From Nitrosococcus oceani ATCC 19707 (GTDB taxonomy: Bacteria; Pseudomonadota; Gammaproteobacteria; Nitrosococcales; Nitrosococcaceae): DNA of 32,000 bases. The stretch is from contig NC_007484.1 of assembly GCF_000012805.1 (NCBI RefSeq), positions 1,200,001-1,232,000 of the forward strand, read 5' to 3'. The translations under genes were made by a program, and so were the position numbers. How positions within the stretch are numbered: position 1 is the stretch's first letter; each line of letters starts with the position of its first letter. Of this stretch, positions 1,125-12,316 are shown piece by piece. A model generated the notes under the pieces. It saw only the letters and a program-made list of their open reading frames with translations. It was not told the DNA's origin and did no database searches.

Positions 1125-1715
1125 ATGAGAATAATAGTTTGTATAAAAATTGGTATTTTAATGCTGATTTTATCGAGCATGGGATGTGCCACTAGTGGGG
1201 GAGAAGAAAATGTTGCTAGCTCCGTGGATAGTGGCTTAGCAGCAGTTGAACAAGCAGCACAGGGGGGAAGACAAGCGATTGAATCAGGAACAACCGCCGC
1301 TAAAAATATGGAGACTGGCCAAGCTGATTTAGCGGATATTTTAGTTAACCAATTAGGTGTTTCTAACCAGCAAGCCATGGGAGGTGCTGGCGCAATTTTC
1401 CAAGAGGCCAGGACTAACATGAAGCCCCAGGATTTTACAACCCTATCTCAATCCGTGCCAGGAATGAGCGATATGCTAAAAGCGGCACCTAAAGTGTCTG
1501 GTTCGGCGCCAGGTATGGCTGGCGGCCTTTCCTCAATGATGGGTGATGCGAACAATGCATTAGGAAGCATGGCTTCCTTAGCCTCCTCATTTCAACAATT
1601 GAATCTTTCTCCTGATATGGTCAGCCAATTTGTACCCGTAGTGACGAATTACGTGAGGAATACTGGCGGGCAAGCAGTAGCTAATTTATTGCAGTCAGCC
1701 TTAGGTACGCCTTGA
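1125..1715 (+). CDS. DUF2780 (VcgC/VcgE-like) family lipoprotein
   Basis: ATG at 1125 follows AAAGAAAGGAA. Signal peptide with lipobox LSSMGC. Gly/Ala/Ser-rich body with LVNQLGVSNQQAMGGAGAIF and a C-terminal QFVPVV..Y motif, typical of DUF2780. The longer 1017 start looks spurious. Confidence 0.7.
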   Translation: MRIIVCIKIGILMLILSSMGCATSGGEENVASSVDSGLAAVEQAAQGGRQAIESGTTAAKNMETGQADLADILVNQLGVSNQQAMGGAGAIFQEARTNMKPQDFTTLSQSVPGMSDMLKAAPKVSGSAPGMAGGLSSMMGDANNALGSMASLASSFQQLNLSPDMVSQFVPVVTNYVRNTGGQAVANLLQSALGTP

Positions 1716-1747
1716 TTTCGGTAATATCGATTCAAATAAAGCGGAGA

Positions 1748-1777
1748 GGGAGAAATAGGTTTATCGCTATTTCCCCC
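1748..1777 (+). terminator. Hairpin after the DUF2780 gene; possible terminator
   Basis: GGGAGAAATAG-8 nt loop-CTATTTCCCCC pairs 10 of 11 bp, followed by TTGCTTTG. It overlaps the premature end of the intI remnant. Confidence 0.4.
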
Positions 1778-2646
1778 TTGCTTTGCCGCGTTGCAGCAAA
1801 TGTGTGGCAAAACTGTGCCGAAAGGTATGTGCAGAAACTCGCTTGGTAATACCCGCTTGTCGAACCGCAGCCTTGATCGCCTTATTGATCAGCGATTGAT
1901 CTATAGGATGGCGTCGAGTCAAACCCGACAGAGGATCTACCGATAGCGAACGGGCCGGAAACACATATTGCCAGCCCCATTCCCGTTCGGCATGAGGATA
2001 TTTTTTTGCCAGCGCATACGGCAAATACACTGCACCGAAGCCGTCGGCCAAATCCTGCTCGTGAATCGCCTTGACCTTTTCTAAAATGATTTTGCAGTAA
2101 CGGTATCATGGCCGCAGAAAGCGGGGTTACCCTGTCTTTATCGCCCTTACCAGAGCGCACGGTAGTCTGTTTATAATCGTAATCGAGATCCTGCACCCGC
2201 AACCGAACGGCCTCGCTAATCCGTAAGCCGCTGCCGTATAACAGTTTCACCACTAACTGCGCCACGCCTTCAACCCGTGGCAATACTTGCCTGATCTCGT
2301 CCAACGACAACACTACTGGCACACGCCGACTGGTTTTGGAGCGAATGGCCTCGATACGCTTGGTCAGCGGTATATCCAGAACCTGCTTGTATAAAAACAC
2401 CAACGCATTCATCGCCTGATTTTGGGTGGCAGACGCTACTTTACGTTCTGTTGCCAGATAGCATAAAAACGCTTCTATCTTGACTTCACTGTTTTCAAAC
2501 AGCGCAGCTCTTTCGTTGAGCTGGTGAAATTTGACAAACTGCTTAATCCACTCGCAATAAGAGCGCTCGGTGTGCAGTGAATAATGCTTGAGCCGCATGA
2601 TGCGGCGAACATCTTCCAGCAAGGTTGGCGATTTGGTGCTTGACAT
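1767..2646 (-). pseudogene. intI: Integron integrase (IntI-type tyrosine recombinase), frameshifted and 3'-truncated
   Basis: N-terminal frame (ORF 1882..2670) reads ERSYCEWIKQFVKFH, ALVFLY, YGSGLRISEAVRLRVQDLD, VRSGKGDKDR. The C-terminal frame (1767..~2090) carries the IntI-specific insertion [23 protein letters not shown]...DP.SG..RRH and [12 protein letters not shown]. The frames join if one A is removed from the A-run at 2083-2086. The ORF stops right after HLLQRG, so the HxxGH/catalytic Tyr region is missing. Confidence 0.9.
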
Positions 2647-2667
2647 CAAATCATTAGTGGCTATAAA
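2640..2667 (+). promoter_or_regulatory. Pc-like sigma70 promoter reading into attI and the cassettes
   Basis: TTGACA (2640-2645), 16-nt spacer, TATAAA (2662-2667). The -35 overlaps the intI start codon (2644-2646 on the minus strand). Confidence 0.5.
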
Positions 2668-2702
2668 CAATTAATGGCTATAGTGAGGCGACCTATTATT
2701 AT

Positions 2703-2847
2703 ATAGGCAAATTTGCCTGAATTGATGGCTAATATCAGGTTATCAAGGCAAATGTACATGATTTGGGTATTATCAGGGCAAAAGTGCCTGAAAAAGCCGG
2801 CAATATCAATTTATCAGGCAGATTGGCTTGATAATCAATAGTTAGAC
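2703..2847 (+). other. attI region with iterated TATCAGG(G)CAAA-type motifs and crossover core GTTAGAC
   Basis: Motifs at ~2703-2720 (palindrome AGGCAAATTTGCCT), 2741-2761, 2771-2791 and 2811-2831. GTTAGAC at 2841-2847 fits GTTRRRY. TTAGAC matches 5/6 of the complement of the attC1 R'' core. Confidence 0.6.
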
Positions 2848-2900
2848 TTGCAAGAGAACATCGCGCATCGTGATGTCGTTTTAACAACAGGAGACATGCC

Positions 2901-3203
2901 ATGGTCAAAGTAGCCTTGTTCGTTCGCCTTGAAGCGAAACCCGGAAAAGAGAAAGAGGTTGAGAACTTCCTTGTGAGCGGCCTTCCCATCGTCAATGAGG
3001 AGCCTGACACCACTGCGTGGTTTGGCATTCGCCTTGGACCAAGCACTTTCGGAATCTTTGATGCTTTCCCGGATGAAGCGGGTCGGCAGGCCCATCTCTC
3101 CGGCAAGGTCGCAGCCGAGTTGATGGCTAAGGCAGGTGAGTTGTTCTCCGAGCCCCCGTCCATCGAAAAGGTTGATGTACTTGCGGCAAAGCTACCTGGC
3201 TAG
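2901..3203 (+). CDS. ABM-domain (YgiN-like) putative monooxygenase; cassette 1
   Basis: 100 aa. VALFVRLEAKPGKE..VE.FL, TTAWFGIRLGPSTFGIFDAFPDEAGRQAHLSG and IEKVDVLAAKLP are typical of this small family. RBS AGGAGA lies upstream. Confidence 0.75.
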   Translation: MVKVALFVRLEAKPGKEKEVENFLVSGLPIVNEEPDTTAWFGIRLGPSTFGIFDAFPDEAGRQAHLSGKVAAELMAKAGELFSEPPSIEKVDVLAAKLPG

Positions 3204-3206
3204 CAA

Positions 3207-3266
3207 GCCTAACAATTCGTTCAAGCCGACGCCGCTTCGCGGCGCGGCTTAACTCAGGCGTTCGCG
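3207..3266 (+). other. attC site of cassette 1 (60 bp)
   Basis: R'' GCCTAAC, imperfect palindrome, R' G|TTCGCG at 3260. By memory it is near-identical to the aadA-type 59-base element. Confidence 0.85.
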
Positions 3267-3418
3267 CCGCTGCGCGGCGCGAATCGGGGAGTTGACTGCG
3301 CCAAACGGCTGCCCGCGCCGCTACGCGTCGCGAACAACCGTTCGACTGGCAGAACCCCCTGCATAATCAGACGCTGTGCGCCTATGTATGCAGGAGAACC
3401 CGCCCGTCAACTCCCCGA
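3261..3418 (+). repeat. ORF-less attC-only unit, long form (copy A)
   Basis: Starts at G|TTCGCG and ends at CCCCGA|TTATGC. Internal R''-like cores are CGCGAAT (3278-3284) and CGCGAAC (3329-3335). A 15-bp perfect inverted repeat joins 3282-3296 and 3406-3420. Confidence 0.85.
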
Positions 3419-3579
3419 TTATGCGCCCACACGCCCTCTAGCCTAATGTCTTGTGCGACAGAAATATTTGGATTATTACATGATAGTTTTGGCGCTTATT
3501 CACGAAAAACAATAGGTGCAAAATGACACGACTATGGCAAGATCTAAGCAGAATATTTCGTGACACGGCAACGAAGAAG

Positions 3580-4188
3580 ATGTCTAACAATATTATTAGC
3601 ATAATCATTGCCATTGCCCGAGATGAAGTTTCCGAGGATACTCTAAAGAATATTGACGAAAATGTAAAAAGGCTCATTCAGAAACATTATAATGTAGGAT
3701 TGAGATACTTAGAGGAAATGCATTCGGTTAGTAATACAGAACTACGAAAGAAATTGCTTCACGATGCAAGGCGTTCATTTTCTGAAGCCATAACTGTCGA
3801 TACTCCACTTCAATCTGCACAAGCCACTAGAATAGTTGCTGTATGCTATGATTTATTGGACGAGAAAGAGACCGCCTTCCTTCGATACGAGGAAGCATTC
3901 TTAAAGGCTATTGAATATTATAATAGACTGTTGAAACAGTTTGAGAGTAGTGGGGGGACAAGAGGAATAGACTTGCTACTCGGTTTTTCTCTCGTTGGTC
4001 AGCCAATCATGTACACTCGATGGACCTTGAGATATTTTAGGCGCAAAAAGCTAGAAGAAGAGGCTAAAAATATTAGAAGCTTTCTATATGATTTGAAATA
4101 CTTTTTAGTTGAGAGAGAAATATTTCTTCAAGCTTTATATAGCGATATTGAAAGTATACCTCCCTATTCTTGGTCAGATACAGGATAG
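3580..4188 (+). CDS. Hypothetical protein, AT-rich, predicted all-helical; cassette 2
   Basis: Long ORF 3523..4188; ATG at 3580 (MSNNIIS) preferred. I recognise no family. Codon composition differs from its neighbours. Confidence 0.55.
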   Translation: MSNNIISIIIAIARDEVSEDTLKNIDENVKRLIQKHYNVGLRYLEEMHSVSNTELRKKLLHDARRSFSEAITVDTPLQSAQATRIVAVCYDLLDEKETAFLRYEEAFLKAIEYYNRLLKQFESSGGTRGIDLLLGFSLVGQPIMYTRWTLRYFRRKKLEEEAKNIRSFLYDLKYFLVEREIFLQALYSDIESIPPYSWSDTG

Positions 4189-4239
4189 AGAGTCGGGTAC
4201 ATGATTGGAAAGTTAAACTGAGCGAGATCCTTCCAGTGC

Positions 4240-4362
4240 GCATAACCCGCGGCTGCACGCCGACGCAGGGCTTCACCGCCTTGCCTCGTTCGGGCAGCAG
4301 CGCTTACTTGCCTCGTCCAATCGTTGCGCCGCCCTGCGCGGGTGAGCCGCAATCTGTTCGCG
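4240..4362 (+). other. attC site of cassette 2 (123 bp)
   Basis: R'' GCATAAC (4240-4246) is the complement of the cassette start TTATGC (3419-3424). Arms CCCGCGGCTGCACGCC / GCGCCGCCCTGCGCGGG. R' G|TTCGCG at 4356. Confidence 0.8.
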
Positions 4363-4513
4363 CCGCTGCGCGGCGCGAATCGGGGAGTTGACTGCGCCAA
4401 ACGGCTGCCCGCGCCGCTACGCGTCGCGAACAACCGTTCGACTGGCAGAACCTCCTGCATAATCAGATGCCGCACATCCATTATCCAGGAGAACCCGCCC
4501 ATCAACTCCCCGA
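4357..4513 (+). repeat. ORF-less attC-only unit, long form (copy B)
   Basis: Same unit as copy A. Ends at CCCCGA|TTAGCT. Confidence 0.85.
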
Positions 4514-4547
4514 TTAGCTGCCAGAGAAAGGTCGGAACCAATACGTA

Positions 4548-4576
4548 TTGACGATGTCCATACATCTAGATAGAGT
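4548..4576 (+). promoter_or_regulatory. Possible brnTA promoter with adjacent 10-bp palindrome
   Basis: TTGACG, 17-nt spacer, TAGAGT, ending 6 nt before ATG 4583. Palindrome AATACGTATT at 4540-4549. Confidence 0.3.
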
Positions 4577-4582
4577 GCTTCT

Positions 4583-4876
4583 ATGGACATGACCTTTGAG
4601 CTCAATGGAACCACTTTTGTATGGGACAGTAAGAAAGCCCATTCAAATTTTGCCAAGCATGAGGTCTCGTTTGAAGCAGCAGCTACGGCGTTCTTCGATC
4701 CCTTTTTCCGGTTGGAAGACGCCAGCGACAATGATGAAGTACGAGATGCCTTAATCGGGTTTGATGGGTATCATCGGCTACTTTATGTCGTGAACATTCA
4801 AATCGAAGAGAGCGGCATTCGTATTATTTCAGCCCGAAAGGCCACTCGCGAGGAGCGGCAAAGATATGATCAATGA
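4583..4876 (+). CDS. brnT: BrnT-family (DUF497) toxin
   Basis: F.WD..KA..N..KH.VSFEEA..AF.D and IRIISARKAT..ER..Y motifs. Confidence 0.85.
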   Translation: MDMTFELNGTTFVWDSKKAHSNFAKHEVSFEAAATAFFDPFFRLEDASDNDEVRDALIGFDGYHRLLYVVNIQIEESGIRIISARKATREERQRYDQ

Positions 4877-5165
4877 ACGGATTAAAAAGCGCCTGAAAAA
4901 GGACCGCCCTATGACTTCCATTACCCTTCGTGTACCGAAGGATGTGGTTGAAGGGCTCAAGGAAATGGCTCCGGAGCTAGGGTTCGCCGGCTACCAGCCG
5001 CTTATCCGAGCCTATATCAGTGAAGGGATGCGCCGAGACGAGAAAAAGCTCTATTTCACACCAGCAAAACGTATGGCTGAAGCTCTAAAAGCTCGCGGTG
5101 TTGATCCAGCGCTTGTCGATCAGGTACTTATTGAAGCTAGTGATTCTCAGCAGGCGGTCGATTAA
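4866..5165 (+). CDS. brnA: BrnA-type (RHH/CopG-like) antitoxin
   Basis: Overlaps the brnT stop by 11 nt. Contains ITLRVPKDVVEGLKEMAPELGFAGYQPLIRAYISEG. Confidence 0.8.
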   Translation: MINERIKKRLKKDRPMTSITLRVPKDVVEGLKEMAPELGFAGYQPLIRAYISEGMRRDEKKLYFTPAKRMAEALKARGVDPALVDQVLIEASDSQQAVD

Positions 5166-5234
5166 GGAAAGTGGTGCACGCAGTGACAGGAATATGGCTC
5201 AACGCATCGTTTCTGTTAGGTTAACCGCGGTGGC

Positions 5235-5290
5235 AGCTAACAAATCGCTGTAGGCGGCGGGTCAAACGCACCTGAACTCAGGCGTTCGCG
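5235..5290 (+). other. attC site of the brnTA cassette (56 bp)
   Basis: R'' AGCTAAC is the complement of cassette start TTAGCT (4514-4519). The 3' end CTCAGGCG|TTCGCG is shared with attC1. Confidence 0.75.
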
Positions 5291-5391
5291 CCGCTACGCG
5301 TCGCGAACAACCGTTCGACTGGCAGAACCTCCTGCATAATCAGATGCCCCACATCTATTATCCAGGAGAACCCGCCCGTCAACTCCCCGAG
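5285..5391 (+). repeat. ORF-less attC-only unit, short form (copy C)
   Basis: Lacks the first ~51-bp module. Own R'' CGCGAAC at 5302-5308. Ends at CCCCGAG|TTAGGG, a canonical G|TT. Confidence 0.85.
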
Positions 5392-5400
5392 TTAGGGCTG

Positions 5401-5670
5401 TCAAAACTGATCGTAGTGACCTCCGATGGCGAAAATATAGATGTATTTATCATCGAACTTATATACGATGCGGTCTTTTCGACTAAGGCGCCGGGACCAA
5501 AGGCCGGAAAGGCTATGTTTCAACTGTTCAGGTTTTCCCATTCCTGTAGTGGGGTCACCGCGCAGCATTTCTTTTAATACGCTACGCAGCGCTTTATGTA
5601 GTTTTTTGTCGCGTTCACGAAGGTTCTCGTATGTGGTCCAGGTATTGCCTTCAAAAACCAGTGATCTCAT
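5401..5670 (-). CDS. yoeB: YoeB/Txe-family toxin
   Basis: GKPE.LKH.LSG.WSRR....DRIVY and a C-terminal GHY motif. Sits downstream of, and overlapping, yefM. Confidence 0.9.
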   Translation of the reverse strand: MRSLVFEGNTWTTYENLRERDKKLHKALRSVLKEMLRGDPTTGMGKPEQLKHSLSGLWSRRLSRKDRIVYKFDDKYIYIFAIGGHYDQF

Positions 5671-5923
5671 CCATTTCCTCGGCTGAAGGCCTGTATCCTG
5701 TTCCCTTCTCGTGGGTACGCAATGAATCCGCTATTTGCCGGATTAAGTCATTGCTCTGCAATACAAATAGTGTTTCTTGCTCACGTTCCCAATCCTCGGC
5801 GCTCAACACCACGAAATCGTCACCACCGCGGCGTGTGACCTTCAGCGGCGCATGCCTGCTAACCACTTGTTCTACCAGAGTTTTTAAATTATCTCTAAAC
5901 TTATTTACACTTACGCTATCCAT
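5651..5923 (-). CDS. yefM: Phd/YefM-family antitoxin
   Basis: N-terminal VSVNKFRDNLKTLVEQV..HAPLKVTRRGGDDFVVLSAEDWE..QETL. Overlaps yoeB by 20 nt. Confidence 0.9.
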   Translation of the reverse strand: MDSVSVNKFRDNLKTLVEQVVSRHAPLKVTRRGGDDFVVLSAEDWEREQETLFVLQSNDLIRQIADSLRTHEKGTGYRPSAEEMDEITGF

Positions 5924-5939
5924 TGGTCGATGTTCTCAG

Positions 5940-5960
5940 TTGTACGATGATCCCGTACAA
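5940..5960 (-). promoter_or_regulatory. Probable yefM-yoeB operator palindrome
   Basis: TTGTACG-7 nt-CGTACAA lies 17 nt upstream of the yefM ATG. As I recall, TGTAC-type palindromes are the known YefM-YoeB operator core in E. coli. Confidence 0.5.
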
Positions 5961-5973
5961 TATAGACAAAAAG

Positions 5974-6049
5974 CCCTAACAAGGCAAATCAACTCGGACG
6001 GGTTTCGTCGCTGCGCTCCTCAACCTGCCGGTTATTTGCAACGTTATTC
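5974..6049 (+). other. attC site of the yefM-yoeB cassette (76 bp)
   Basis: R'' CCCTAAC is the complement of cassette start TTAGGG (5392-5397). Arms GGCAAATCAAC / GGTTATTTGC. R' G|TTATTC at 6043. Confidence 0.8.
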
Positions 6050-6082
6050 ATCACAGACAAAACCTTAGATTTGGAATCCGCG

Positions 6083-7070
6083 ATGTTCGACTTACCGCCA
6101 CTCCTCCACAAGCGTGATGTCTTCGTCATCATGCCGTTCTCGACTACCAAGTCGTGCTCGGAGAATGAGTGGACTGAAATCTACGAAGACGTGTTCCAGC
6201 CTGCGATAGAAAATTGCGGTCTCCAGTGCGGTCGCGCCGAAGTTGGAACGGGAAGTCTAATCAAAAGTATCATTGAACGACTGCGTAACGCATACATCGT
6301 TTTGGCGGACATTACAGACGCGAATCCAAACGTTTTCTACGAACTTGGCGTTACGGCATTCTCTCAGCAAAAGAACTATCCTGCTGGCACAAGGAGCAAA
6401 GCACATCCCGTCGGATATTCGGGGCTATTGGTTGCTCATCTATGGAATTTCCCCGAAAAAAATCGCAACGTTCAAATCTGAATTGAGACGAATAACCGAA
6501 CAGATTGATAGCGACCCAGAAAAGAGCGACAGCCCTGTTTCCGACTACATGGAACGTGAAAACGTCGTGCTTTCACGGGATGCGCAGAGACAAAACCTTC
6601 GCAAACTGGGAGCCCTCTTCACCGAATTGACCGGAAATGCTCTCGTGGTATCAGAATTGTCCAGCAATTCCGATGCGCTCCCGTTGGTCTCCTACGGCTG
6701 TCTGGCGCTCCTGCTAGAAACGCTATACGTCGATCCCGGTCCAGAGGTTTTGAAGCGAGCATACGAACTCAGGAAATGTTTGCAGTTGATCAAACGTGGA
6801 AACTTCGGCGCGATACTGCCGGTCACAACCAAGACGTTGCAACAATTGATACTTGATGTCGAGGCTATCCGAAACAAGGTCGCGGCCGGACCGTTGGATG
6901 AACCGCCGAATCCCACGATGATGCAATGGATTCCTGGTTTCGGATTGCCAAGCGACATTCCGCTGCCTGGATCATATCTGGGCGGGGATGATGTTTACGG
7001 CTTGTGTATACAGGCAGCTGCGCCCTTGTCGGAGGATTCGAGCCCTGGAAACCAAAACAAAGATGAATAA
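6083..7070 (+). pseudogene. Two-domain protein: N-terminal nucleoside 2-deoxyribosyltransferase-like/TIR-like Rossmann domain plus an unknown C-terminal domain. Interrupted by a +1 frameshift near 6350-6356.
   Basis: Frame 1 reads DVFVIMPFS...IVLADITDANPNVFYELGV. The continuation HSLSKRTILLAQGAKHIPSDIRGYWLLIYG is in the frame of ORF 6273..7070. Removing one G around 6353 joins them. Confidence 0.6.
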
Positions 7071-7156
7071 CCATGCCGTGTGAACCGGAGCGGCCGACAA
7101 TGCGGATATTGAAATCAGAGTTTGTGGCGGCCGCCCGGTTACGACCATCGTTCGCG
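7065..7156 (+). other. attC site (92 bp)
   Basis: R'' GAATAAC (containing the stop codon) is the complement of cassette start TTATTC (6044-6049). Arms GTGTGAACCGGAGCGGCCG / CGGCCGCCCGGTTACGAC. R' G|TTCGCG at 7150. Confidence 0.8.
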
Positions 7157-7311
7157 CCGCTGCGCGGCGCGAATCGGGGAGCTGACTACGCCAAACGGCT
7201 GCCCGCGCCGCTACGCGTCGCGAACAACCATTCGACTGACGGAACCTCCTGCATCATCAGACGCCGTGCGCCTATGTATGCAGGAGAGCCCGCCGCCCGT
7301 CAACTCCCCGA
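7151..7311 (+). repeat. ORF-less attC-only unit, long form (copy D)
   Basis: Same unit. Ends at CCCCGA|TTAGGC. Confidence 0.85.
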
Positions 7312-7323
7312 TTAGGCAAAAGT

Positions 7324-8133
7324 ATGGCTGAGAAGCAGTATCAAACCATTGAGGTGTACCGAGCTGCCGCAGATGCACTCTATGCGGCCAGTGAAATGGT
7401 GCTTTTCTCATTCGCCAAACACGACTATGACACTAAGAACCTAATTATCAGGAACTTCGTTGCCCGCTCAGCCATGACGCTTAAAAGCGTTTTTTCGCTT
7501 TGGGATAACGGCGACACTCAGAATGCCTGGATTATACATAGAGCCTTGGTCGATAGAATGTTTCATTTGCACAGCCTCGGAGTGAATGACGAGTTTCACG
7601 CCTTCGAGGAGTGGTCTTTTTTCGAGCAATACAAAAGCCAAAACCGACTAAAAAGCGATGCTCTTTTCAAGGATCAGGCTGTAGGCTGGGTATATAAAGT
7701 AAGTGATGAGAAAAAGGCACGGATTAAAGCTCTGGAACAAAATAAGCCAACGTGGCGGCGCCCGAGGGCGGAGGATGTCGCTAAAGATATGGGAATGGAA
7801 TTTCTTTATAAATACGGCTATGACTATGCCTCGACCCACGTCCACCCTATGGCCAATGATGGTGAGCAAGACTTTTACACTATTACAAAGCTTCAGCCAT
7901 CGCCTAGGTTTCCCTCTCAGATCACGGTAATCTCAAACACTATTTTGACCTCTACACTTATTCTTCAGGATTCATTGAATCACAGCTCTTTTAGTTGGAG
8001 GCGAGTGTTATGGGACTTCATAGATGATGTCCGAGAGCTACTGGATAACGGTGATACCAGCTATCAGAAATCTTTCGAAAAGCTGGCCATTTTATTCAAA
8101 GAATACGATTTATGTGAGCCCAGCAATGCCTAA
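7324..8133 (+). CDS. Hypothetical helical protein, possibly DUF5677-like (weak recollection)
   Basis: 269-aa ORF starting 6 nt after the cassette's first hexamer (TTAGGC, 7312-7317). The stop codon lies inside R'' of its attC. Confidence 0.6.
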   Translation: MAEKQYQTIEVYRAAADALYAASEMVLFSFAKHDYDTKNLIIRNFVARSAMTLKSVFSLWDNGDTQNAWIIHRALVDRMFHLHSLGVNDEFHAFEEWSFFEQYKSQNRLKSDALFKDQAVGWVYKVSDEKKARIKALEQNKPTWRRPRAEDVAKDMGMEFLYKYGYDYASTHVHPMANDGEQDFYTITKLQPSPRFPSQITVISNTILTSTLILQDSLNHSSFSWRRVLWDFIDDVRELLDNGDTSYQKSFEKLAILFKEYDLCEPSNA

Positions 8134-8205
8134 CAAGACGCCGTTGGCGGACAATTTTTCCACCGCTTCGCGGCTCAAAAATTGCCGCAAAGCTCTGCGT
8201 TAGGT
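8128..8205 (+). other. attC site (78 bp)
   Basis: R'' GCCTAAC is the complement of TTAGGC (7312-7317). Arms GACAATTTTTC / CAAAAATTGCC. R' G|TTAGGT at 8199. Confidence 0.85.
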
Positions 8206-8229
8206 TTACTTATTTAAAGGGGAAGTGAT

Positions 8230-8565
8230 GTGAAAAAATCCGCCAGTTGTTTAATTGCTCTATTGGTATTTTCTTGTTGTGTTTACGCAGAGTTACAAGA
8301 AGAGAAATGGAAGACTATATTTTTAAAATATCTCCCGGAAGATAGCTCAAAGGAATCGGTTGAAATGAGAGAATATTTTAAAAAAGCCCCAGTTGAAGGT
8401 ATTTACCCTTTTGGAGCAGGTATCTGTGAAGCACTGAAAGAAGGACAGCATAAAAAGGATATTTTAGAAAAAAGTTATTACCATTTTTGGGGGGTTCCTG
8501 CGTCTGATGCTATGTACAAAGCGTCTATAGAGGTAATTTGCCCAGAATATAAAGCGCGTCGTTAG
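8230..8565 (+). CDS. Small secreted protein of unknown function
   Basis: GTG start after AAGGGGAAG. Signal peptide MKKSASCLIALLVFSCCVYA. AT-rich. Confidence 0.55.
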   Translation: MKKSASCLIALLVFSCCVYAELQEEKWKTIFLKYLPEDSSKESVEMREYFKKAPVEGIYPFGAGICEALKEGQHKKDILEKSYYHFWGVPASDAMYKASIEVICPEYKARR

Positions 8566-8588
8566 GTTTCCAATAGGAACCTTGAGCT

Positions 8589-8870
8589 GTGAGATTTGAA
8601 TGGGATTTGAGTAAGGCAGAGAATAATGAAAAGAAACATGGGGTAAGCTTCTCAGAAGCCACGACTGTGTTTGGGGATCCTTTGGAACTTACCATATCTG
8701 ATCCTGACCACTCAGAGGACGAGTACCGTTTTCTTCTTAGTATTGGCAGATCGTCGGTGGGCCGTGTTCTCATTGTCTCCTATACTGAAAGGGAAGAGAA
8801 TAGTATCCGAATCATCAGCGCAAGACGTGCTACGAAGCCAGAGCAGAAGCAATATGAGTCACAACACTGA
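8589..8870 (+). CDS. brnT: BrnT-family (DUF497) toxin, second copy
   Basis: GTG start. FEWDLSKAENNEKKHGVSFSEATTVFGDP and IRIISARRATKPEQKQY. Confidence 0.85.
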   Translation: MRFEWDLSKAENNEKKHGVSFSEATTVFGDPLELTISDPDHSEDEYRFLLSIGRSSVGRVLIVSYTEREENSIRIISARRATKPEQKQYESQH

Positions 8871-9090
8871 ATCAGATGATATGCGCCCTGAGTATGATTT
8901 CTCGGGCGGTGTTCGGGGGAAGCACTATAAGGCGTATCGAAAAGGTACGAACGTTGTCCTGCTTGATCCAGACGTTGCTGAAGTCTTCAAAAATTCCGAG
9001 TCTGTTAATCGAGCACTTCGTTTACTTATGGACTTGGGAGGCAAGGAAATTCAAAGAAACCTAACAAAGGGCTCCAGCGGACACTCGTAA
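8854..9090 (+). CDS. Putative antitoxin partnered with BrnT
   Basis: ATG at 8854 overlaps the brnT end. MRPEYDFSGGVRGKHY...VVLLDPDVAEVF.NSESVNRALR is a motif commonly seen downstream of DUF497 toxins. Confidence 0.65.
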   Translation: MSHNTESDDMRPEYDFSGGVRGKHYKAYRKGTNVVLLDPDVAEVFKNSESVNRALRLLMDLGGKEIQRNLTKGSSGHS

Positions 9091-9092
9091 AC
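9059..9092 (+). other. Truncated attC (5' half only)
   Basis: R'' ACCTAAC is the complement of cassette start TTAGGT (8200-8205). The L'' region GGGCTCCAGCGGACAC has no complementary 3' arm. It abuts an internal piece of the repeat unit. Confidence 0.55.
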
Positions 9093-9248
9093 CCGCGCCG
9101 CTATCTCCCATAGTATACGCTTCTTTTAAGCGTATACTACGCAGCAAACCTACTAACTCTGAAGAAGGAATAAACTTTCATTTGCCTAAGTCGGGGGTGC
9201 CGCTCAACTGGCAGAACCTCCTGCATCATCAGATGCCCCACATCTATA
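9093..9248 (+). repeat. Disrupted remnant of the ORF-less unit (copy E)
   Basis: CCCGCGCCGCTA (9093-9104) and CAACTGGCAGAACCTCCTGCATCATCAGATGCCCCACATCTATA (9205-9248) match the unit. About 100 unrelated bp lie between them, including the perfect hairpin AGTATACGCTT-CTTT-AAGCGTATACT. Confidence 0.6.
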
Positions 9249-9280
9249 GTGGTTAAGCAGCGTAAGATCAGCGTGTTGGC

Positions 9281-9340
9281 GTCTAATATTTCGCTGCAGC
9301 TGCGTTTGCCCTGCCAAGCACCTGAGCTCAGGCGTTATGC
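9281..9340 (+). other. attC site (60 bp) preceding the higBA cassette
   Basis: R'' GTCTAAT, L'' GCTGCAGC, 3' end CTCAGGCG|TTATGC. Same architecture and length as attC1. Confidence 0.65.
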
Positions 9341-9365
9341 AGTAAATACCAAGCTCTATTGATAA

Positions 9366-9379
9366 GCGTCACGTGACGC
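9366..9379 (+). promoter_or_regulatory. Perfect 14-bp palindrome; candidate higBA operator
   Basis: GCGTCACGTGACGC lies 16 nt upstream of the higB ATG. Confidence 0.4.
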
Positions 9380-9394
9380 GGTACAGTTTGGCTT

Positions 9395-9682
9395 ATGATT
9401 AAATCCTTCGCCGATAAGCGAACTCAAGGGCTGTACTCCATGGGCAAGTCAAAGAAGTTTCCTGCGGATGTAGCTCCGAGAGCCGCCAGAAAACTAGAAT
9501 ACGTGAATCTGGCAGAGCAGATAGAGGACTTGAAGGTGCCGCCCGGCAATCGCCTTCACCCACTTTCTGGAAATAGGCAGGGGCAGCACGCAATTTCAAT
9601 ACATAAACAGTGGCGTATCTGTTTTCGTTTTGAGGATGGCGATGCGTATGAGGTCGAAGTGTGTGACTACCACACTGAGTGA
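9395..9682 (+). CDS. higB: HigB-type (plasmid maintenance system killer, RelE/ParE superfamily) toxin
   Basis: MIKSFADKRTQGLY...LE.L......DL..PPGNRLH.LSG.R.GQHAISI..QWRICFRFEDGDAYEVEV.DYH. Confidence 0.85.
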   Translation: MIKSFADKRTQGLYSMGKSKKFPADVAPRAARKLEYVNLAEQIEDLKVPPGNRLHPLSGNRQGQHAISIHKQWRICFRFEDGDAYEVEVCDYHTE

Positions 9683-9686
9683 GGTA

Positions 9687-10011
9687 ATGACTATGGCCAT
9701 TCTTAATAATACCGGTATGCAGCGTAAGCCGACTCATCCTGGTGAAATGCTGAGAGAGGATTTCCTGCCTGACTATGGCCTGACCGTTGCAGGGCTAGCT
9801 GAATCTCTGGGTGTCTCTCGACAGTCAGTTAATGAATTATTGCGTGAGCGCCGTGCCGTCAGTCCTGAAATGGCACTTCGGCTCGCCTGTTCGTTTGTTT
9901 GGTAACTCTCCGGAATTCTGGCTGAATTCTCAGCGATCTGTTGATCTTTGGAGGGCGGCTCAGTCGGTCAAGGAAGAAGTGGCTCGGATTAAGCCGCTAC
10001 ATGTTGCATAA
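9687..10011 (+). pseudogene. higA: HigA (XRE-HTH) antitoxin with a 1-nt frameshift near 9888-9892
   Basis: Frame 1 reads PTHPGEMLREDFL...LGVSRQSVNELLRERRAVSPEMALRLA, then stops. The expected continuation RLFGNSPEFWLNSQ..VDLW is in the frame of ORF 9811..10011. Confidence 0.75.
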
Positions 10012-10083
10012 CCAGGCCATGCACCGGTGGCAAAACCGGCGCGAAGCGGAGATTTTGCCACCGGTGCATGGCAGACGTTATCC
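10006..10083 (+). other. attC site of the higBA cassette (78 bp)
   Basis: R'' GCATAAC is the complement of cassette start TTATGC (9335-9340). 20-bp arms GGCCATGCACCGGTGGCAAAA / TTTTGCCACCGGTGCATGGC. R' G|TTATCC at 10077. Confidence 0.9.
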
Positions 10084-10207
10084 ACAAAAATAGGACGATC
10101 TACCTTGCCAGTTGAAAAAACAGGGCCAGACCCCAATTGATTCAAGCTTTCTATGGACCATGCTAAATGCGCTGGTGAGCCGGCGCGAGTGAGTCGGACG
10201 GCGGGGC

Positions 10208-10489
10208 TCAGTCACCGTCTTCAGTTTCCTGAGCCAGTAGATACTTGAGCGTAAAGGCATCGTAGTCGAAATCGGTGTCGTCCGAGACCGCGGCCAGAAC
10301 CTGGGGCGCTATGCGCTCCCGCTCCTCCTCGGTCTCGAAGTCTGAGAAGTTGGCTGCGGCCGCCTCGGCAAACATTTCTTCTATCAGCCGCTTTGCCCGC
10401 GCTTCGTGGCTCTCGATATCAGTATTGGCGCCGGGAGGGATGTTTTCCTCAATCCAGGTCTCAGCCCACCTCAGGAATCGCTTGCTCAT
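10208..10489 (-). CDS. DUF768-like small acidic protein
   Basis: MSKRFLRWAETWIEENIPPG...AKRLIEEMFAEAAAANFS resembles DUF768 proteins. The ORF is open up to 10684, but that extension is AT-rich and unlike the family. Confidence 0.55.
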   Translation of the reverse strand: MSKRFLRWAETWIEENIPPGANTDIESHEARAKRLIEEMFAEAAAANFSDFETEEERERIAPQVLAAVSDDTDFDYDAFTLKYLLAQETEDGD

Positions 10490-10741
10490 GACTGCCCATC
10501 TACCTCTTGCATCATATTCGGGGCCGGTTTCCCGGACCACTGTGATCCACCCGATATTTCGGTCTAAATAAAAAAATTTTACTACATACTGATTGAATGC
10601 TTCAATAGTCGCTCGATATAGAAAGGGGTTTTTCTGGTTTACTTTCGAATCGTAAAGATCACATGACATGTGTTTGTGGTTCAATAACTTTAGTCGCTAC
10701 GCTTCCCTGCGACTATCGTCCTAAAAAACAATCTTGGCTCT

Positions 10742-10858
10742 GTGTATCGAAACATGGGCCGCATCGCCGAAGCCGAGCCGCTGCTTCGCAAGGCCGTTGA
10801 GCTAAACGAGCGCGTATTGGGTGGTAGTCACCCACAAACATTGAGCACGACTGTTAAC
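10742..10858 (+). pseudogene. Isolated TPR-repeat fragment
   Basis: The translation ..MGRIAEAEPLLRKAVELNERVLGGSHPQTLSTTVN matches the TPR_10/12 pattern. No start codon or surrounding ORF. Confidence 0.4.
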
Positions 10859-11030
10859 CCAGTCTATGGGGAGTGCTTCTTTACTTGTTTTCAGCAAGGC
10901 TTGTAGCGAACGCTCTGCACCAAGTCCGTGGGCAAGAATGACGGCATCAGCGGCGCAATCGCTCTTCGCGCCTTCATATCTAAGTGCGTATTTTCAATTA
11001 TTACGCCTGGTGTCAATTGATACGTTAGAA

Positions 11031-11103
11031 ACATAACAGGTAGATGTAGCCGGCCAATTTTCCGCTACGCCCCTTCGGGCTCGGCTGATTTACGGCGTTA
11101 GGC
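11031..11103 (+). other. attC site (73 bp)
   Basis: R'' ACATAAC, arms GCCGGCCAATTTTCCGC / GGCTCGGCTGATTTACGGC, R' G|TTAGGC at 11097. Confidence 0.7.
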
Positions 11104-11145
11104 GGCTGCAAGCTAGGGGGTAGATTTTCGAGGTATATTTTGCGA

Positions 11146-11400
11146 ATGACCAACGAATTTACAGCTATTTTCGAGTGTGATGGCGACTGGTATATCGCGT
11201 ATTGCCCTGAAATACCGGGTGCAAATGCCCAGGGTCGTACAAAGGACGAGGCTCGAGAGAGCCTTGCCGAGGCGATTTCTCTTATTCTTGCGGACCGCCG
11301 AGAGGATATGCTTCGTGGACTACCTGACGATAGAATCGGCTCGCGGAGAAGATATGCCAGGGCCTCTCTATCCCGAAAATCGGCGGGTAATTCCCCTTAA
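11146..11400 (+). CDS. HicB-like (UPF0150) antitoxin with no adjacent hicA; atypical C-terminal tail
   Basis: FTAIFECDGDWYIAYCPEIPGANAQGRTKDEARESLAEAISLILADRRED is the family signature. The last ~25 aa look out of character. Confidence 0.65.
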   Translation: MTNEFTAIFECDGDWYIAYCPEIPGANAQGRTKDEARESLAEAISLILADRREDMLRGLPDDRIGSRRRYARASLSRKSAGNSP

Positions 11401-11453
11401 TAAGGCGCTCGAACGGACGCGGTTAACAGTGAGCTGCTTTCCTTGGTGATCTA

Positions 11454-11559
11454 TCCGCGCCGCAGCGCGTGGCGAACAACCGTTCGATTGGCAGAACCTC
11501 CTGCATCATCAGATGCCGTACGTCTATTACCTAGGAGAATTCGCTAGTCAACATTCCGA
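11454..11559 (+). repeat. ORF-less attC-only unit, short form, diverged (copy F)
   Basis: TCCGCGCCGCAGCGCGTGGCGAACAACCGTTCGATTGGCAGAACC...GTCAACATTCCGA|TTATAA. The left core is mutated (A|TCCGCG). Confidence 0.7.
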
Positions 11560-11577
11560 TTATAAGCATTAACTGAT

Positions 11578-11600
11578 ATAGTACCATTGTATGGTACTAT
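11578..11600 (+). promoter_or_regulatory. Palindrome upstream of hicA; candidate operator/promoter
   Basis: ATAGTACCAT-TGT-ATGGTACTAT (10-bp arms) lies 7 nt before ATG 11607. TATAGT at 11577-11582. Confidence 0.4.
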
Positions 11601-11606
11601 TTTCGC

Positions 11607-11861
11607 ATGAAACGGAAGCACTAACGAACGTTGGAAAGGATATTTGCTCGCCCTACTAGTGGAACTATTCCCTGGTCCGATATTGAGTCACTTTTTGTGT
11701 CACTCGGCGCTGATGTGTCCGAGCGGGCAGGATCCCGAGTAGCAGTGGTTTTATTTGGCGAAGTCAAAGTTTTTCATCGTCCTCATCCTTCACCAGACAC
11801 GGATAAAGGCGCAGTTAATAGCATACGAGAATGGCTAGATTTACACGAGGTGAAACCATGA
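11607..11861 (+). pseudogene. hicA: HicA-family toxin with an in-frame TAA at codon 6
   Basis: ATG AAA CGG AAG CAC TAA CGA ACG TTG GAA... gives MKRKH*RTLERIFARP, against the family N-terminus M..K.RKTLE.IF. The rest is intact (GSRV...FHRPHP). A TTG at 11631 could allow reinitiation. Confidence 0.65.
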
Positions 11862-12190
11862 ATGTTTTAGAAGTTGACGGCTTTAAAGCAAAAATTGAGT
11901 TCGACCCTGATCTTGATCTTTTTCGGGGCGAGATACTTGGATTGAATGGCAGTGCTGATTTCTATGGGAAAAGCCCGGCAAGTTTACGAAAAGAGTTTAA
12001 AAACTCGCTAAAAGTATTTCTGGAAGTTTGTGAGGAAAAAGGTATAGAGCCCACAAAAGAATTTTCAGGTAAGTTTAACTTAAGAATTCCACCCAGATTA
12101 CACAGTGAAATTTCGGCTAAGGCGGCCGCATCGAACAAGAGTATCAATCAATGGGTGGTCGAGGTTTTGGAAGAGTCTGTAAATGAATGA
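11858..12190 (+). CDS. hicB: HicB-family antitoxin
   Basis: ATGA overlap with hicA. FKAKIEFDPDLDLFRGEILGL...SGKFNLRIPPRLHSEISAKAAASNKSINQWVVEVLE. Confidence 0.85.
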   Translation: MNVLEVDGFKAKIEFDPDLDLFRGEILGLNGSADFYGKSPASLRKEFKNSLKVFLEVCEEKGIEPTKEFSGKFNLRIPPRLHSEISAKAAASNKSINQWVVEVLEESVNE

Positions 12191-12196
12191 AAATGC

Positions 12197-12271
12197 TTAT
12201 AACAAGGGTATGCAGCCGGATCAAAATGTTCGCTGCGCTATCCTTTTGACCGTTGGTGCCGGGCGTTCACG
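12197..12271 (+). other. attC site of the hicAB cassette (75 bp)
   Basis: R'' TTATAAC is the complement of cassette start TTATAA (11560-11565). Arms GGATCAAAA / CCTTTTGACC. R' G|TTCACG at 12265. Confidence 0.8.
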
Positions 12272-12316
12272 CCCCTGCGCGGCGCGAATCGGAGAATTGA
12301 CTGTGTCAAACGTGGC
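12266..12316 (+). repeat. 5' fragment of the ORF-less unit (copy G); last recognisable array element
   Basis: TTCACGCCCCTGCGCGGCGCGAATCGGAGAATTGACTGTGTCAAACGTGGC matches the first ~50 nt of the long form, then homology stops. Confidence 0.65.

Follow-up and report, generated by a model that had tools for sequence, protein, structure and literature searches.

A gene-less, attC-only unit repeated in integron arrays of Nitrosococcus and uncultured bacteria: a probable selfish cassette

The VCR of sedentary integrons is a homogeneous, species-specific attC. In Xanthomonas, integron cassettes yield sRNA-Xcc1, a sense-strand transcript with an Rfam family, and the IS1111-attC group and group IIC-attC introns, which encode a transposase or a reverse transcriptase, insert within attC. 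In Vibrio arrays, highly paralogous non-coding cassettes reach up to 45 copies (V. vulnificus) and were proposed to be selfish or regulatory (Boucher et al. 2006, PMC1382264). These cassettes combine non-coding cargo with a VCR-type attC, and their homologues are absent outside vibrios. Promoter cassettes (PMC11014356; Tansirichaiya et al. 2019, cited in PMC8876359) are so defined because experiments have shown promoters in their non-attC cargo.

Here, we describe a unit of 107–161 bp, gene-less and consisting of recombination-site DNA only, from a window of 32,000 nt, which is the whole stretch analysed, in Nitrosococcus oceani ATCC 19707 (NC_007484.1, 1,200,001–1,232,000, forward strand; GCF_000012805.1). 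Similar to the Vibrio non-coding cassettes (PMC1382264), the unit is ORF-less, carries its own attC, occurs in many paralogous copies per array, and is conserved between related species. In contrast to them, the short form has 11 nt of cargo and the long-form circle just a 3-nt hairpin loop, the conserved form includes a second attC base in inverted orientation, and members of the family occur in Nitrosococcus and in several unrelated metagenomic contexts. Like the promoter cassettes, the unit is gene-less, lies between gene cassettes, and is sometimes first; unlike them, it is essentially devoid of cargo and lacks a consensus promoter. A first-pass annotation of this DNA had regarded an amplified empty cassette as undescribed. 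However, amplified non-coding cassettes and the selfish hypothesis have been known from Vibrio since 2006 (PMC1382264), and the novelty lies solely in the attC-only content, the dual-attC architecture, and the spread across lineages.

Copies, junctions, and distribution

The chromosomal integron of N. oceani contains seven copies of the unit, all on the plus strand, as the first-pass annotation had reported.

3261–3418, plus strand: copy A, long form, 158 nt (covariance-model match, 171.6 bits)
4357–4513, plus strand: copy B, long form, 157 nt (covariance-model match)
5285–5391, plus strand: copy C, short form, 107 nt; 17 nt plus a canonical attC with R'' at 5302–5308; ends GAG|TT
7151–7311, plus strand: copy D, long form, 161 nt (covariance-model match)
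11454–11559, plus strand: copy F, diverged short form, 5'-truncated, behind ORF 11140–11400; ends A|TTATAA
12266–12316, plus strand: copy G, first 51 nt (5') of a long form; the last recognisable element of the array

The region 9093–9248, previously taken for a remnant, does hold unit-derived DNA, but this is limited to about 12 nt at its start and to 9200–9247. A 20-nt core of the unit occurs six times in the window against 0.04 expected, which none of 100 shuffles equalled, and the non-array part of the window (~20 kb) contains no copy. The surrounding array comprises the following elements.

1767–2670, minus strand: pseudogene of intI, the integron integrase (Pfam and tblastn)
2700–2841, plus strand: attI region, crossover after G2841 (G|TTAGAC); 87% identity to locus L039, 18786–18930
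3207–3266, plus strand: conventional 60-nt attC of cassette 1 (R'' GCCTAAC, L'' GTTCAAGC, L' GCTTAAC, R' G|TTCGCG)
4240–4362, plus strand: conventional attC (R'' GCATAAC ... G|TTCGCG)
5235–5290, plus strand: short attC that folds weakly (R'' AGCTAAC ... G|TTCGCG)
7065–7156, plus strand: conventional attC (R'' GAATAAC ... G|TTCGCG)
9059–9340, plus strand: aberrant 282-nt attC region holding unit fragments 9093–9104 and 9200–9247 and an AT-rich insert
12197–12271, plus strand: conventional attC (R'' TTATAAC ... G|TTCACG)

The intI pseudogene retains Phage_int_SAM_4 and a partial Phage_integrase domain (Pfam). It is frameshifted near 2080, and its C-terminus ends before the catalytic Tyr; against the intact IntI of locus L057, tblastn aligns aa 1–189 in frame -3 and aa 187–286 in frame -1. 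Because intI is a pseudogene, the copies in N. oceani are now frozen. An IS605-type tnpB lies at 29–706 of the window.

Every full copy opens directly after the G of a conventional attC or attI, and the start hexamer of the next cassette then follows. In the window, the left junction is G|TTCGCG at 3260, 4356, 5284, and 7150 and G|TTCACG at 12265, in agreement with the earlier placement of the left end at the crossover of the preceding attC; copy F, fused behind ORF 11140–11400, has no G|TT junction on its left. The unit is followed by a hexamer that is reverse-complementary to the R'' of the next attC in 5/5 window copies, as also claimed before, and in 13 of 16 copies across all loci within 1.7 kb (binomial P ~3e-11). 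Bounded by G|TT on the left and by the following cassette's start hexamer on the right, each full copy occupies a cassette slot. In the long copies and in copy F, the right end is A|TT instead of G|TT, and R' is ATT rather than the canonical GTT in nearly all copies; the first-pass annotation had allowed for such ends only as [G/A]|TT. It had also overlooked a second, outer R'' in the long copies (CGCGAAT, 3278–3284), the perfect partner of A|TTCGCG. No other attC type in these arrays is homogeneous, and in its homogeneity the unit resembles the VCR.

Homologous loci were reached via spurious antisense ORFs used as search handles, and the fetched loci, ~120 kb in total, were scanned with a covariance model. 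This yielded 18 further copies at 9 distinct loci, from two more arrays of N. oceani, from strain AFC132, and from five or six metagenomic contexts of uncultured bacteria. At each locus the copies lie on one strand, in array orientation, and all are among cassettes, with none outside cassette arrays in the ~120 kb. In three integrons (L039, L057, and L058), the unit is the first cassette exactly at the attI crossover, and in L057 it adjoins an intact intI (about 327–328 aa). The same attI base G is joined to an ORF cassette in the window (G|TTAGAC) and to the unit in L039 (G|TTCGCG). Downstream neighbours include toxin-antitoxin pairs, DUF5677, LprI, DUF4917, a type I R-M operon, and PhzF.

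Architecture and bottom-strand fold

The short form consists of an R box (CGCGAAC/GTTCGCG), an unpaired central spacer, an L box (GTTGAC / GTC-G-AAC) with an extrahelical G, and a terminal hairpin. On the bottom strand it adopts a textbook attC fold (z-score -6.7), consistent with the earlier description of 17 nt plus an attC. Similar to canonical attC sites (59-base elements and the VCR of sedentary integrons), the unit has inverted R''/R' and L''/L' cores, an inner site with an unpaired spacer and an extrahelical G, a G:T-enriched fold on the bottom strand, and a crossover adjoining TT. The description as 17 nt plus an attC does not suffice for the long form (~158 nt), the conserved and widespread one, in which the same attC is accompanied by an inverted, loop-less copy of its own stem base. 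In copy A, the parts are as follows.

3261–3283, plus strand: P1 hairpin, TTCGCGCCGC-TGC-GCGGCGCGAA, with the 5' arm beginning at the crossover
3278–3296, plus strand: outer arm, with outer R'' CGCGAAT, CGGGGA, and GTTGAC
3297–3317, plus strand: loop TGC and 'anti-inner' arm GCCAAAC-GGCT-GCCCGCG, pairing on the bottom strand with 3329–3346 (helix H2)
3329–3346, plus strand: inner R'' CGCGAAC, spacer AACC, and L'' GTTCGAC, whose extra C gives the extrahelical G of the bottom strand
3347–3405, plus strand: variable terminal arm of the attC, with two tip alleles (A/D type and B/C type)
3406–3418, plus strand: L' GTCAAC, spacer TCCCCG, and junction base A (R' = A|TT...)

The outer arm (3278–3296) perfectly complements 3406–3418 plus TTCGCG and forms, together with 3297–3317, the inverted, loop-less attC copy; unlike in canonical attC sites, this perfectly complementary arm rivals the canonical one. 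Arms of one attC-base copy are predicted to pair with those of the other on the bottom strand, giving as modelled ground state a fully paired three-way junction and not a canonical attC. This state is predicted to lie 14–18 kcal/mol below the canonical attC fold, with its spacer paired and no extrahelical base in the crossover-bearing stem.

The R' hexamer and the outer R'' covary in three types (TTCGCG/CGCGAAT, TTCCCG/CGGGAAT, and TTCCTC/GAGGAAT). The internal CGCGAAC, which the first-pass annotation had taken as the R'' of the unit, matches two of the three R'-hexamer types, whereas the outer CGCGAAT covaries in all three. Across the stems, 97.5% of cells are paired, against 37–50% with the partners slid. 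At least two Watson-Crick types occur in 24 of 66 pairs (13 long copies), and double changes occur in 6 pairs, a number reached by 1 of 500 shuffles. P1 (helix 5) is paired in 97.8% of cells, and the outer-arm helix contains four pairs with compensatory changes.

The pairing is specific to one strand. The bottom strand has 118 G·T cells versus 12 A·C cells, standard pairs make up 97.5% of cells on the bottom strand versus 83.6% on the top strand, and the fold is ~10 kcal/mol more stable on the bottom strand. Singleton changes are balanced (9 G·T versus 8 A·C), which points to selection and not to mutation bias. Collectively, the asymmetry and the balanced singletons argue for purifying selection on the bottom-strand fold. 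The bias is that of attC sites, for which G:T enrichment of the bottom strand was reported by Nivina et al. 2016 (PMC5027507), although the asymmetry of the unit is ~5 times larger than the published attC average. The conventional attCs of the same window show a far weaker asymmetry.

The open frames of the unit contain no conserved start codons, and between-lineage indels shift the reading frame. Judged from the sequences, the unit has no conserved ORF.

Movement of the unit and alternative explanations

The unit is most readily understood as an ORF-less integron cassette moved by IntI, and it is probably selfish. The short-form fold, the first position at attI, and the array-only copies all agree with the free-standing cassette with its own attC that was proposed before. 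The unit would move as any other cassette does: IntI would recombine the unit's own site with the preceding attC or attI, releasing the folded bottom strand in the form of a small circle, and would re-insert this circle at the G|TT of attI or another attC, and repeated rounds would produce many copies per array. In the excised long-form circle, P1 and the outer stem would fuse into one perfect palindrome of 23–29 bp, depending on lineage, which carries the crossover A|TT, and the whole circle would then be a fully paired three-way junction. The long form may survive better as a circle or, once inserted, may resist excision. Several observations stand against this reading. The long form ends in A|TT and not in the conserved G|TT triplet, its crossover stem is predicted to have a paired spacer and no extrahelical base, and sites of this kind are poor substrates for wild-type IntI1 (PMC5027507). 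Moreover, intI is dead in N. oceani, and no presence/absence polymorphism of the unit at a single junction was seen among the near-identical strains compared.

It is unlikely, though a contender to be taken seriously, that the cassette is retained because it serves the array in a regulatory or structural role, which would be compatible with movement by IntI. It could act as a promoter for downstream cassettes, as in gene-less cassettes of Vibrio and Treponema, as a transcriptional insulator, or as a recombination 'lock', in which P1 would sequester the upstream attC's R' box and excision would be opposed by the perfect outer stem, stabilising the neighbouring cassettes. The 3' arm of P1 on the bottom strand does include that R' box, and the L box and lower stem are conserved in sequence across lineages beyond what pairing demands; the structure is, however, conserved on the bottom strand and not in a sense transcript. 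Gene-less cassettes often bear promoters that are unpredictable in silico (PMC11014356; PMC8876359), but neither sigma-70-like promoters nor intrinsic terminators were matched in any unit on either strand, and the -10-like motif ATAAT/ATAAC sits in a stem, 14–15 nt from a poor -35. Likewise, toxin-antitoxin cassettes frequently come after units, while the downstream neighbours as a whole are varied and extend to PhzF.

We consider it improbable that the copies are inert scars and that the unit itself is no recombination substrate. Such scars would have arisen as an inverted duplication in an aberrant event (a template switch at the attC hairpin or a wrong-strand IntI reaction) and spread within arrays solely through homologous recombination, gene conversion, or segmental duplication. 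In formal terms, the long form duplicates the attC base in inverted orientation, and its A|TT junction and paired spacer are non-canonical. However, the architecture is retained in lineages with diverged arms, with compensatory changes in every helix and three R' hexamers, and the strand asymmetry with balanced singletons indicates purifying selection. Copies that are 5'-truncated and fused after other attC halves are common, and at least one fusion junction falls in a shared GCGGCGCG microhomology, but the unrelated cassettes flanking the copies and the attI position in three integrons are not explained by homologous recombination.

A non-autonomous transposable element whose non-IntI enzyme targets the attC/attI crossover (a MITE, an IS200/IS605-type palindromic element, or an IS1111-attC relic) is very improbable. 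Attention to it is drawn by a 13-nt inverted repeat (TCGGGGAGTTGAC ... GTCAACTCCCCGA), hairpin-rich ends resembling those of IS200/IS605, and the tnpB in the window. Yet the left repeat lies 23 nt within the element, target-site duplications are lacking, the left flanks have nothing in common but the crossover G, with no fixed 4–5-nt target, and no copy was found outside arrays in the fetched loci. Elements that target attC are known, and like the IS1111-attC group and group IIC-attC introns, the unit occurs only at attC sites and in one orientation. Unlike them, it is ORF-less, measures 107–161 bp, and sits exactly between IntI crossover points on both sides; as in cassettes, the hexamer at its start pairs with an R'' inside the unit, and Rfam gave no match to group II introns or to any other family.

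A structured antisense RNA gene, whose RNA would account for the minus-strand G·U-rich fold in place of single-stranded DNA, is scarcely credible: many G·U-type pairs are conserved on the bottom-strand sequence, some in tandem, and the conventional attCs of the window are far less asymmetric, but no conserved promoter or terminator lies inside the unit, the flanks differ at each copy, Rfam is silent, and G:T enrichment of the bottom strand is documented for attC DNA (PMC5027507). sRNA-Xcc1, a non-coding function of integron cassettes kept across species, is to that extent a likeness, in contrast to which the unit lacks an Rfam match and folds on the non-transcribed strand.

Returning to the reading as an IntI-mobilised cassette, since the unit has neither a gene nor any recognisable promoter or terminator, we infer that it is best viewed as a selfish passenger of the integrase.

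Integron setting and copies of the unit

The window holds a chromosomal integron, in which intI on the minus strand is followed by the attI region and a plus-strand cassette array; 3' of the array lie ordinary chromosomal genes (PEMT, DUF454, GDPD, and the nuo operon). Compared with the intact IntI of the metagenomic locus L057 (327–328 aa), the window intI aligns in two frames, the shift falling near 2080, and its alignment ends at residue 286, short of the catalytic tyrosine. The window integrase is therefore dead, owing to both the frameshift and the truncation of the C-terminus ahead of the catalytic tyrosine. The N. oceani strains NS58 (contig BJWX01000003) and C-27 (JPGN01000034; strain names according to PMC6715879) are 100% and 99.98% identical to the window, respectively, and this comparison yielded no polymorphism in unit presence or absence. 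An IS605-type tnpB (OrfB_IS605 and Cas12f1-like TNB domain) at 29–706, cut by the window start, lies approximately 1 kb from the integrase, and the NS58 assembly breaks in this region.

The array itself is decaying: it contains a frameshifted-looking cassette gene (ORFs 6071–6481/6273–7070, region 6071–7070), a frameshifted-looking HigA-like antitoxin (9630–9905/9811–10011, region 9630–10011), and a TPR fragment (10742–10906). Within it lies an ORF-less, attC-only repeat (the unit), with a long form of approximately 158 nt and a short form of 107 nt.

Integron features and unit copies in the window (coordinates, strand, description)
1767–2670, minus: intI (integrase) pseudogene, Pfam Phage_int_SAM_4 and partial Phage_integrase
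about 2842 to 12316, plus: cassette array, after the attI region
3261–3418, plus: copy A, long form
4357–4513, plus: copy B, long form
5285–5391, plus: copy C, short form
7151–7311, plus: copy D, long form
9200–9247, plus: copy E, core fragment within an aberrant 282-nt attC
11454–11559, plus: copy F, diverged, 5'-truncated, fused behind an ORF
12266–12316, plus: copy G, the 5' 51 nt of the long form, closing the array

Repeat finding, alignment, and nhmmer recovered all seven copies listed in the first-pass annotation, all of them on the plus strand. The 20-nt core of the unit occurs six times in the window against 0.04 occurrences expected by chance, and nothing resembling the unit was found in the remaining 20 kb outside the array. 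Five free-standing and two embedded copies are distributed over about 16 cassette slots. In the aberrant 282-nt attC (9059–9340), an AT-rich insert lies between two unit fragments and holds a perfect hairpin, AGTATACGCTT-CTTTTA-AGCGTATACT, at about 9111–9137; this region looks like a rearranged or invaded site.

Cassette junctions and distribution

Copies A, B, C, D, and G start directly after the G of the preceding attC (G|TT). The two boundary rules proposed in the first-pass annotation both held in the window: the full copies begin at the crossover of a conventional attC, G|TTCGCG, and the hexamer 3' of each copy is reverse-complementary to the R'' of the next attC. Full copies in L027, L043, and L052 (metagenomic), L038 (strain AFC132), and L039 (another N. 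oceani array) also follow a conventional attC at G|TT, and over all loci the R'' 7-mer matching the right-end hexamer lies at most 1.7 kb downstream in 13 of 16 cases (P about 3e-11). The unit thus has the bounds of a cassette, with TT following the G of attC or attI on its left and the TTRRRY of the next cassette following its last base. The R''/R' complementarity of a circularised cassette is likewise present.

The conserved GTT crossover triplet is absent from most right ends, as 15 of the 16 copies end A|TT and only window copy C ends G|TT. Outside the window, A|TT is the right end of every copy except the short one of L038, which is followed by TAAGGA. The left-hand junctions are canonical G|TT. 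In the metagenomic locus L046, the element preceding the unit (10177–10260) itself ends ...CCCGA|TT, not G|TT, so A-terminated attC sites may be more widespread among integrons of this lineage.

The hallmark reaction of a cassette is insertion at attI. The attI region of L039 is 87% identical to that of the window, aligned up to the crossover base, and the same attI base is joined to an ORF cassette in the window (G|TTAGAC) and to the unit in L039 (G|TTCGCG). In the metagenomic loci L057 and L058, a related attI (..CAATGG|TTCCTC and ..CAATGG|TTCCCG, respectively) likewise has the unit as its first cassette, and in L057 the unit adjoins the intact 327–328 aa intI. In all, the unit stands first at three of the four attI junctions seen.

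To find relatives, several collections were searched. An exact-pattern scan of genome_contigs gave 26 loci, of which one (L022) is a true homologue and the rest are chance 20-mers; no Nitrosococcus match appeared, and N. oceani is seemingly absent from or masked in this collection. The same scan of metagenomes returned L027, which is the same array as L022, and two chance matches in coding DNA, leaving L022/L027 as the only true relative from both scans. All six matches in viral_contigs were due to chance, and neither plasmid blastn with the unit nor a protein search with its sense-frame translation returned anything. Copy B has an open antisense frame that is sometimes called as a gene; the translation of this frame was searched against protein representatives and then, as a profile, against a large protein collection. 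This search returned 15 spurious "proteins" (P0001–P0015), on whose contigs nhmmer and a covariance model located 18 further unit copies. Spurious antisense or read-through ORFs are therefore useful handles on non-coding repeats in protein databases; in the window, such a "hypothetical protein" call crosses the unit at 4164–4565 on the minus strand (e.g., NONS58_12870).

Loci with unit copies outside the window
L053 (BJWX01000006 82818–103009): four copies, third array in the NS58 assembly
L039 (DS995301 964229–984384): five copies, named N. oceani by NCBI
L038: three copies, strain AFC132
L027, L043/L044, L052, L046–L051, L057, L058: metagenomic loci

At each locus, the strong matches all lie on one strand, which is that of the cassette ORFs and attCs. 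Within 120 kb of fetched loci and the 20 kb of non-array window, no copy was found outside arrays, which to that extent agrees with the first-pass expectation that copies keep one orientation and are confined to arrays.

Several side observations concern these loci. N. oceani has at least two further arrays (L053 and L039) with no recognisable intI in the fetched DNA; L039 carries an attI-like remnant, and L053 carries an RVT_1 reverse-transcriptase cassette and a GmrSD gene. In L052, a complete type I restriction-modification operon (hsdR, hsdS, AAA_13, and hsdM; 3–6734) begins 40-odd bases past a unit ending A|TTGGAT, and the contig ends before any attC; the operon may be a giant cassette or mark where the array ends. 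A DUF433-DUF5615 (PIN-like) toxin-antitoxin cassette follows the unit in both L027 (674–1503) and L043 (9341–9951). These cassettes belong to two lineages with different start hexamers (TTCTGC and TTAGCG), and the pairing could reflect coincidence or shared ancestry.

Anatomy and folding strand

When circularised on paper, the bottom strand of copy C, the strand that IntI recombines, folds at -23.9 kcal/mol (z = -6.7). The fold comprises an R box of 7 bp (CGCGAAC/GTTCGCG), a spacer left unpaired over 7 nt on one arm and 4 nt on the other, an L box (GTTGAC / GTC-G-AAC) from which a G bulges out, and a terminal hairpin. The bulged G occupies the same position as in the adjoining 60-nt attC (GTTAAGC / GCTT-G-AAC). 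As modeled, the short form is a canonical attC. The first-pass annotation, which described the short form as 17 nt followed by an attC with no further content, is accordingly right on this form; the long form holds more, with a hairpin, P1, and an inverted copy of the stem base. Copy C looks as if a long form had undergone a deletion between its two direct CGCGCCGCT repeats, and its terminal G makes the R box formed with the inner R'' (CGCGAAC) perfect again.

In the long form, nt 1–23 constitute the perfect hairpin P1, TTCGCGCCGC-TGC-GCGGCGCGAA. The stretch after P1, TCGGGGAGTTGAC, is the exact complement of the last 13 nt of the unit, and the next 21 nt (TGC GCCAAAC GGCT GCCCGCG) complement the inner R''-spacer-L'' imperfectly. 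From these two complementarities, nt 18–57 repeat the stem base of the attC in inverted orientation and without a loop. The outer R'' (CGCGAAT) of the long form pairs perfectly with the actual R' of the long copies, which reads A|TTCGCG because these copies end in A, not G. The predicted bottom-strand fold is a three-way junction of an outer stem, a terminal arm, and a hairpin H2, in which the inner arm is paired with the anti-arm; this ground state lies 14–18 kcal/mol below "canonical attC plus the rest" and uses the outer arm, with the spacer paired and no bulge. The extrahelical base and unpaired spacer are present in the short form and in the inner arm of the long form. Sites with a paired spacer and no bulge are poor substrates for wild-type IntI1 (PMC5027507). 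Excision to a circle would fuse P1 with the outer stem into a single perfect palindrome whose 5' arm carries the crossover, with a predicted length of 23 bp in N. oceani and up to 29 bp in L057.

The pairing partners covary. The R' hexamer comes in three types, and in each the outer R'' is its perfect complement (TTCGCG/CGCGAAT, TTCCCG/CGGGAAT, and TTCCTC/GAGGAAT); the inner R'' tracks the R' change in two of the three, and TTCGCG also pairs with the inner CGCGAAC. The "spacer" part of the outer stem varies as well (CGGGGA/TCCCCG, GCGCGA/TCGCGC, GGCCGA/TCGGCC, and others). In a MAFFT alignment of nine long copies, 97.5% of cells pair, compared with 37–50% when the partners are slid, and six pairs show double changes, a number reached by 1 of 500 shuffles. 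In a covariance-model alignment of 13 long copies, which was fitted to the structure and hence leans towards it, 24 of 66 pairs have at least two Watson–Crick types.

Among the non-Watson–Crick cells, read on the bottom strand, G·T outnumbers A·C by 118 to 12, so standard pairs make up 97.5% of cells on the bottom strand and 83.6% on the top. In the nine-copy alignment, the wobble positions common to at least two copies are all G·T (14, against 0 A·C), whereas singleton changes are balanced (9 G·T and 8 A·C), which argues for selection rather than mutational bias. Folding both strands, a check suggested in the first-pass annotation, favoured the bottom strand by about 10 kcal/mol, with 6–10 G·T pairs per long copy on the bottom strand versus 0 on the top. 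Published attC sites show the same bias, averaging 1.24 versus 0.39 G:T mispairs, and their bottom-strand fold is favoured by 2.1 kcal/mol (Nivina et al. 2016, PMC5027507); the bias of the unit is several-fold stronger, and the conventional attCs of the window, in contrast, have little of it. Collectively, the strand bias and the covariation indicate that the fold is conserved on the strand that integrases recombine.

Truncated derivatives were also observed. Copies lacking the 5' part and retaining an intact 3' end are common (window copy F, two in L039, and four in L053) and immediately follow the R''-L'' half of a different attC. The join in L053 and in the fetched locus L040 falls in GCGGCGCG, which is common to P1 and to the apical stem of the 60-nt attC type, and this shared stretch suggests deletion at microhomology. 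The first attC of the window (3207–3266) seems to differ very little from the classical 60-nt aadB/aadA-type attC of class 1 integrons, and its apical stem resembles P1.

Nature and significance of the unit

The unit has its own attC, no coding ORF, and paralogous copies in the array, as a gene-less cassette family does. The junctions, anatomy, distribution, covariation, and strand bias are shown here, and we are confident that the unit is an ORF-less cassette family placed by integron integrases, whose catalysis itself we infer. Its amplification would have proceeded by excision and re-insertion, and it is probably selfish in nature.

Other readings fare less well. As regards a MITE, the unit shows no target-site duplication, its left inverted repeat is internal, starting at nt 24, and its flanks share a left-hand G and a right-hand TTxxxx but otherwise differ from copy to copy. 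For an IS200/IS605-type element (PATE), the left flanks (GGCG, TCTG, ATCG, ATTG, ATGG, CACG, and GTCG) have only the crossover G in common. As far as tested, these features rule out both a MITE and an IS200/IS605-type element. A small protein on either strand was rejected since neither start codons nor reading frames are conserved, the frame being shifted by indels from one lineage to another; the ORFs across the unit are only read-through or antisense frames, with no coding ORF above 150–210 bp. Regarding RNA or regulatory functions, Rfam gave no family at the gathering threshold and only noise in E-value mode (none at E below 0.4), and a promoter/terminator consensus scan found no site in any unit; the promoters of gene-less cassettes are not identifiable in silico (Blanco et al., PMC11014356). 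Finally, an IS1111-attC element or a group IIC-attC intron is dismissed by the length of 107–161 bp, the lack of an ORF, and the lack of an Rfam match.

A further, rather improbable reading is that the long form has specialised, as a selfish element without any protein, in parasitising integron integrases, being a cassette cut down to two inverted copies of one attC base. The excised single-stranded circle would then be a fully paired three-way junction, stable and perhaps nuclease-resistant, and would re-insert efficiently at attI. Such re-insertion would account both for the first position of the unit at most of the attI junctions seen and for its build-up in arrays. After integration, P1 and the perfect outer stem would hinder excision, producing a one-way ratchet and also locking neighbouring cassettes.

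ORF-less cassettes are well known (PMC8876359, PMC11014356). The amplified empty cassette, which the first-pass annotation had regarded as undescribed, is preceded by the highly paralogous non-coding cassette families of Vibrio arrays, proposed to be selfish or regulatory (Boucher et al. 2006, PMC1382264). No homologues of those families were reported outside vibrios, whereas the unit spans Nitrosococcus and metagenomic contexts. We did not find descriptions of a cassette with near-zero cargo, of a dual inverted attC with a three-way junction, of an ATT crossover, or of conservation across Nitrosococcus and several unrelated metagenomic contexts.

In practical terms, array annotation would count the units as ordinary attC sites or miss them. 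As repeats, they break short-read assemblies and yield spurious "hypothetical protein" calls; the contig ends of three fetched loci (L031, L038, and L040) fall inside units. We rate the unit as of moderate to good interest to integron specialists. The long form combines features disfavoured in the laboratory, namely AAT/ATT in place of AAC/GTT, a paired central spacer, no bulge in the crossover stem, and an extreme G·T bias, yet is apparently selected in nature, and it thus constitutes a natural experiment on the rules of attC structure. If the ratchet reading is true, the A|TT crossover with a paired spacer would represent a natural class of non-canonical IntI substrate. Being close to the smallest possible cassette, a recombination site alone, the unit offers a clean natural test of selfish cassette spread, the idea raised for Vibrio in 2006.
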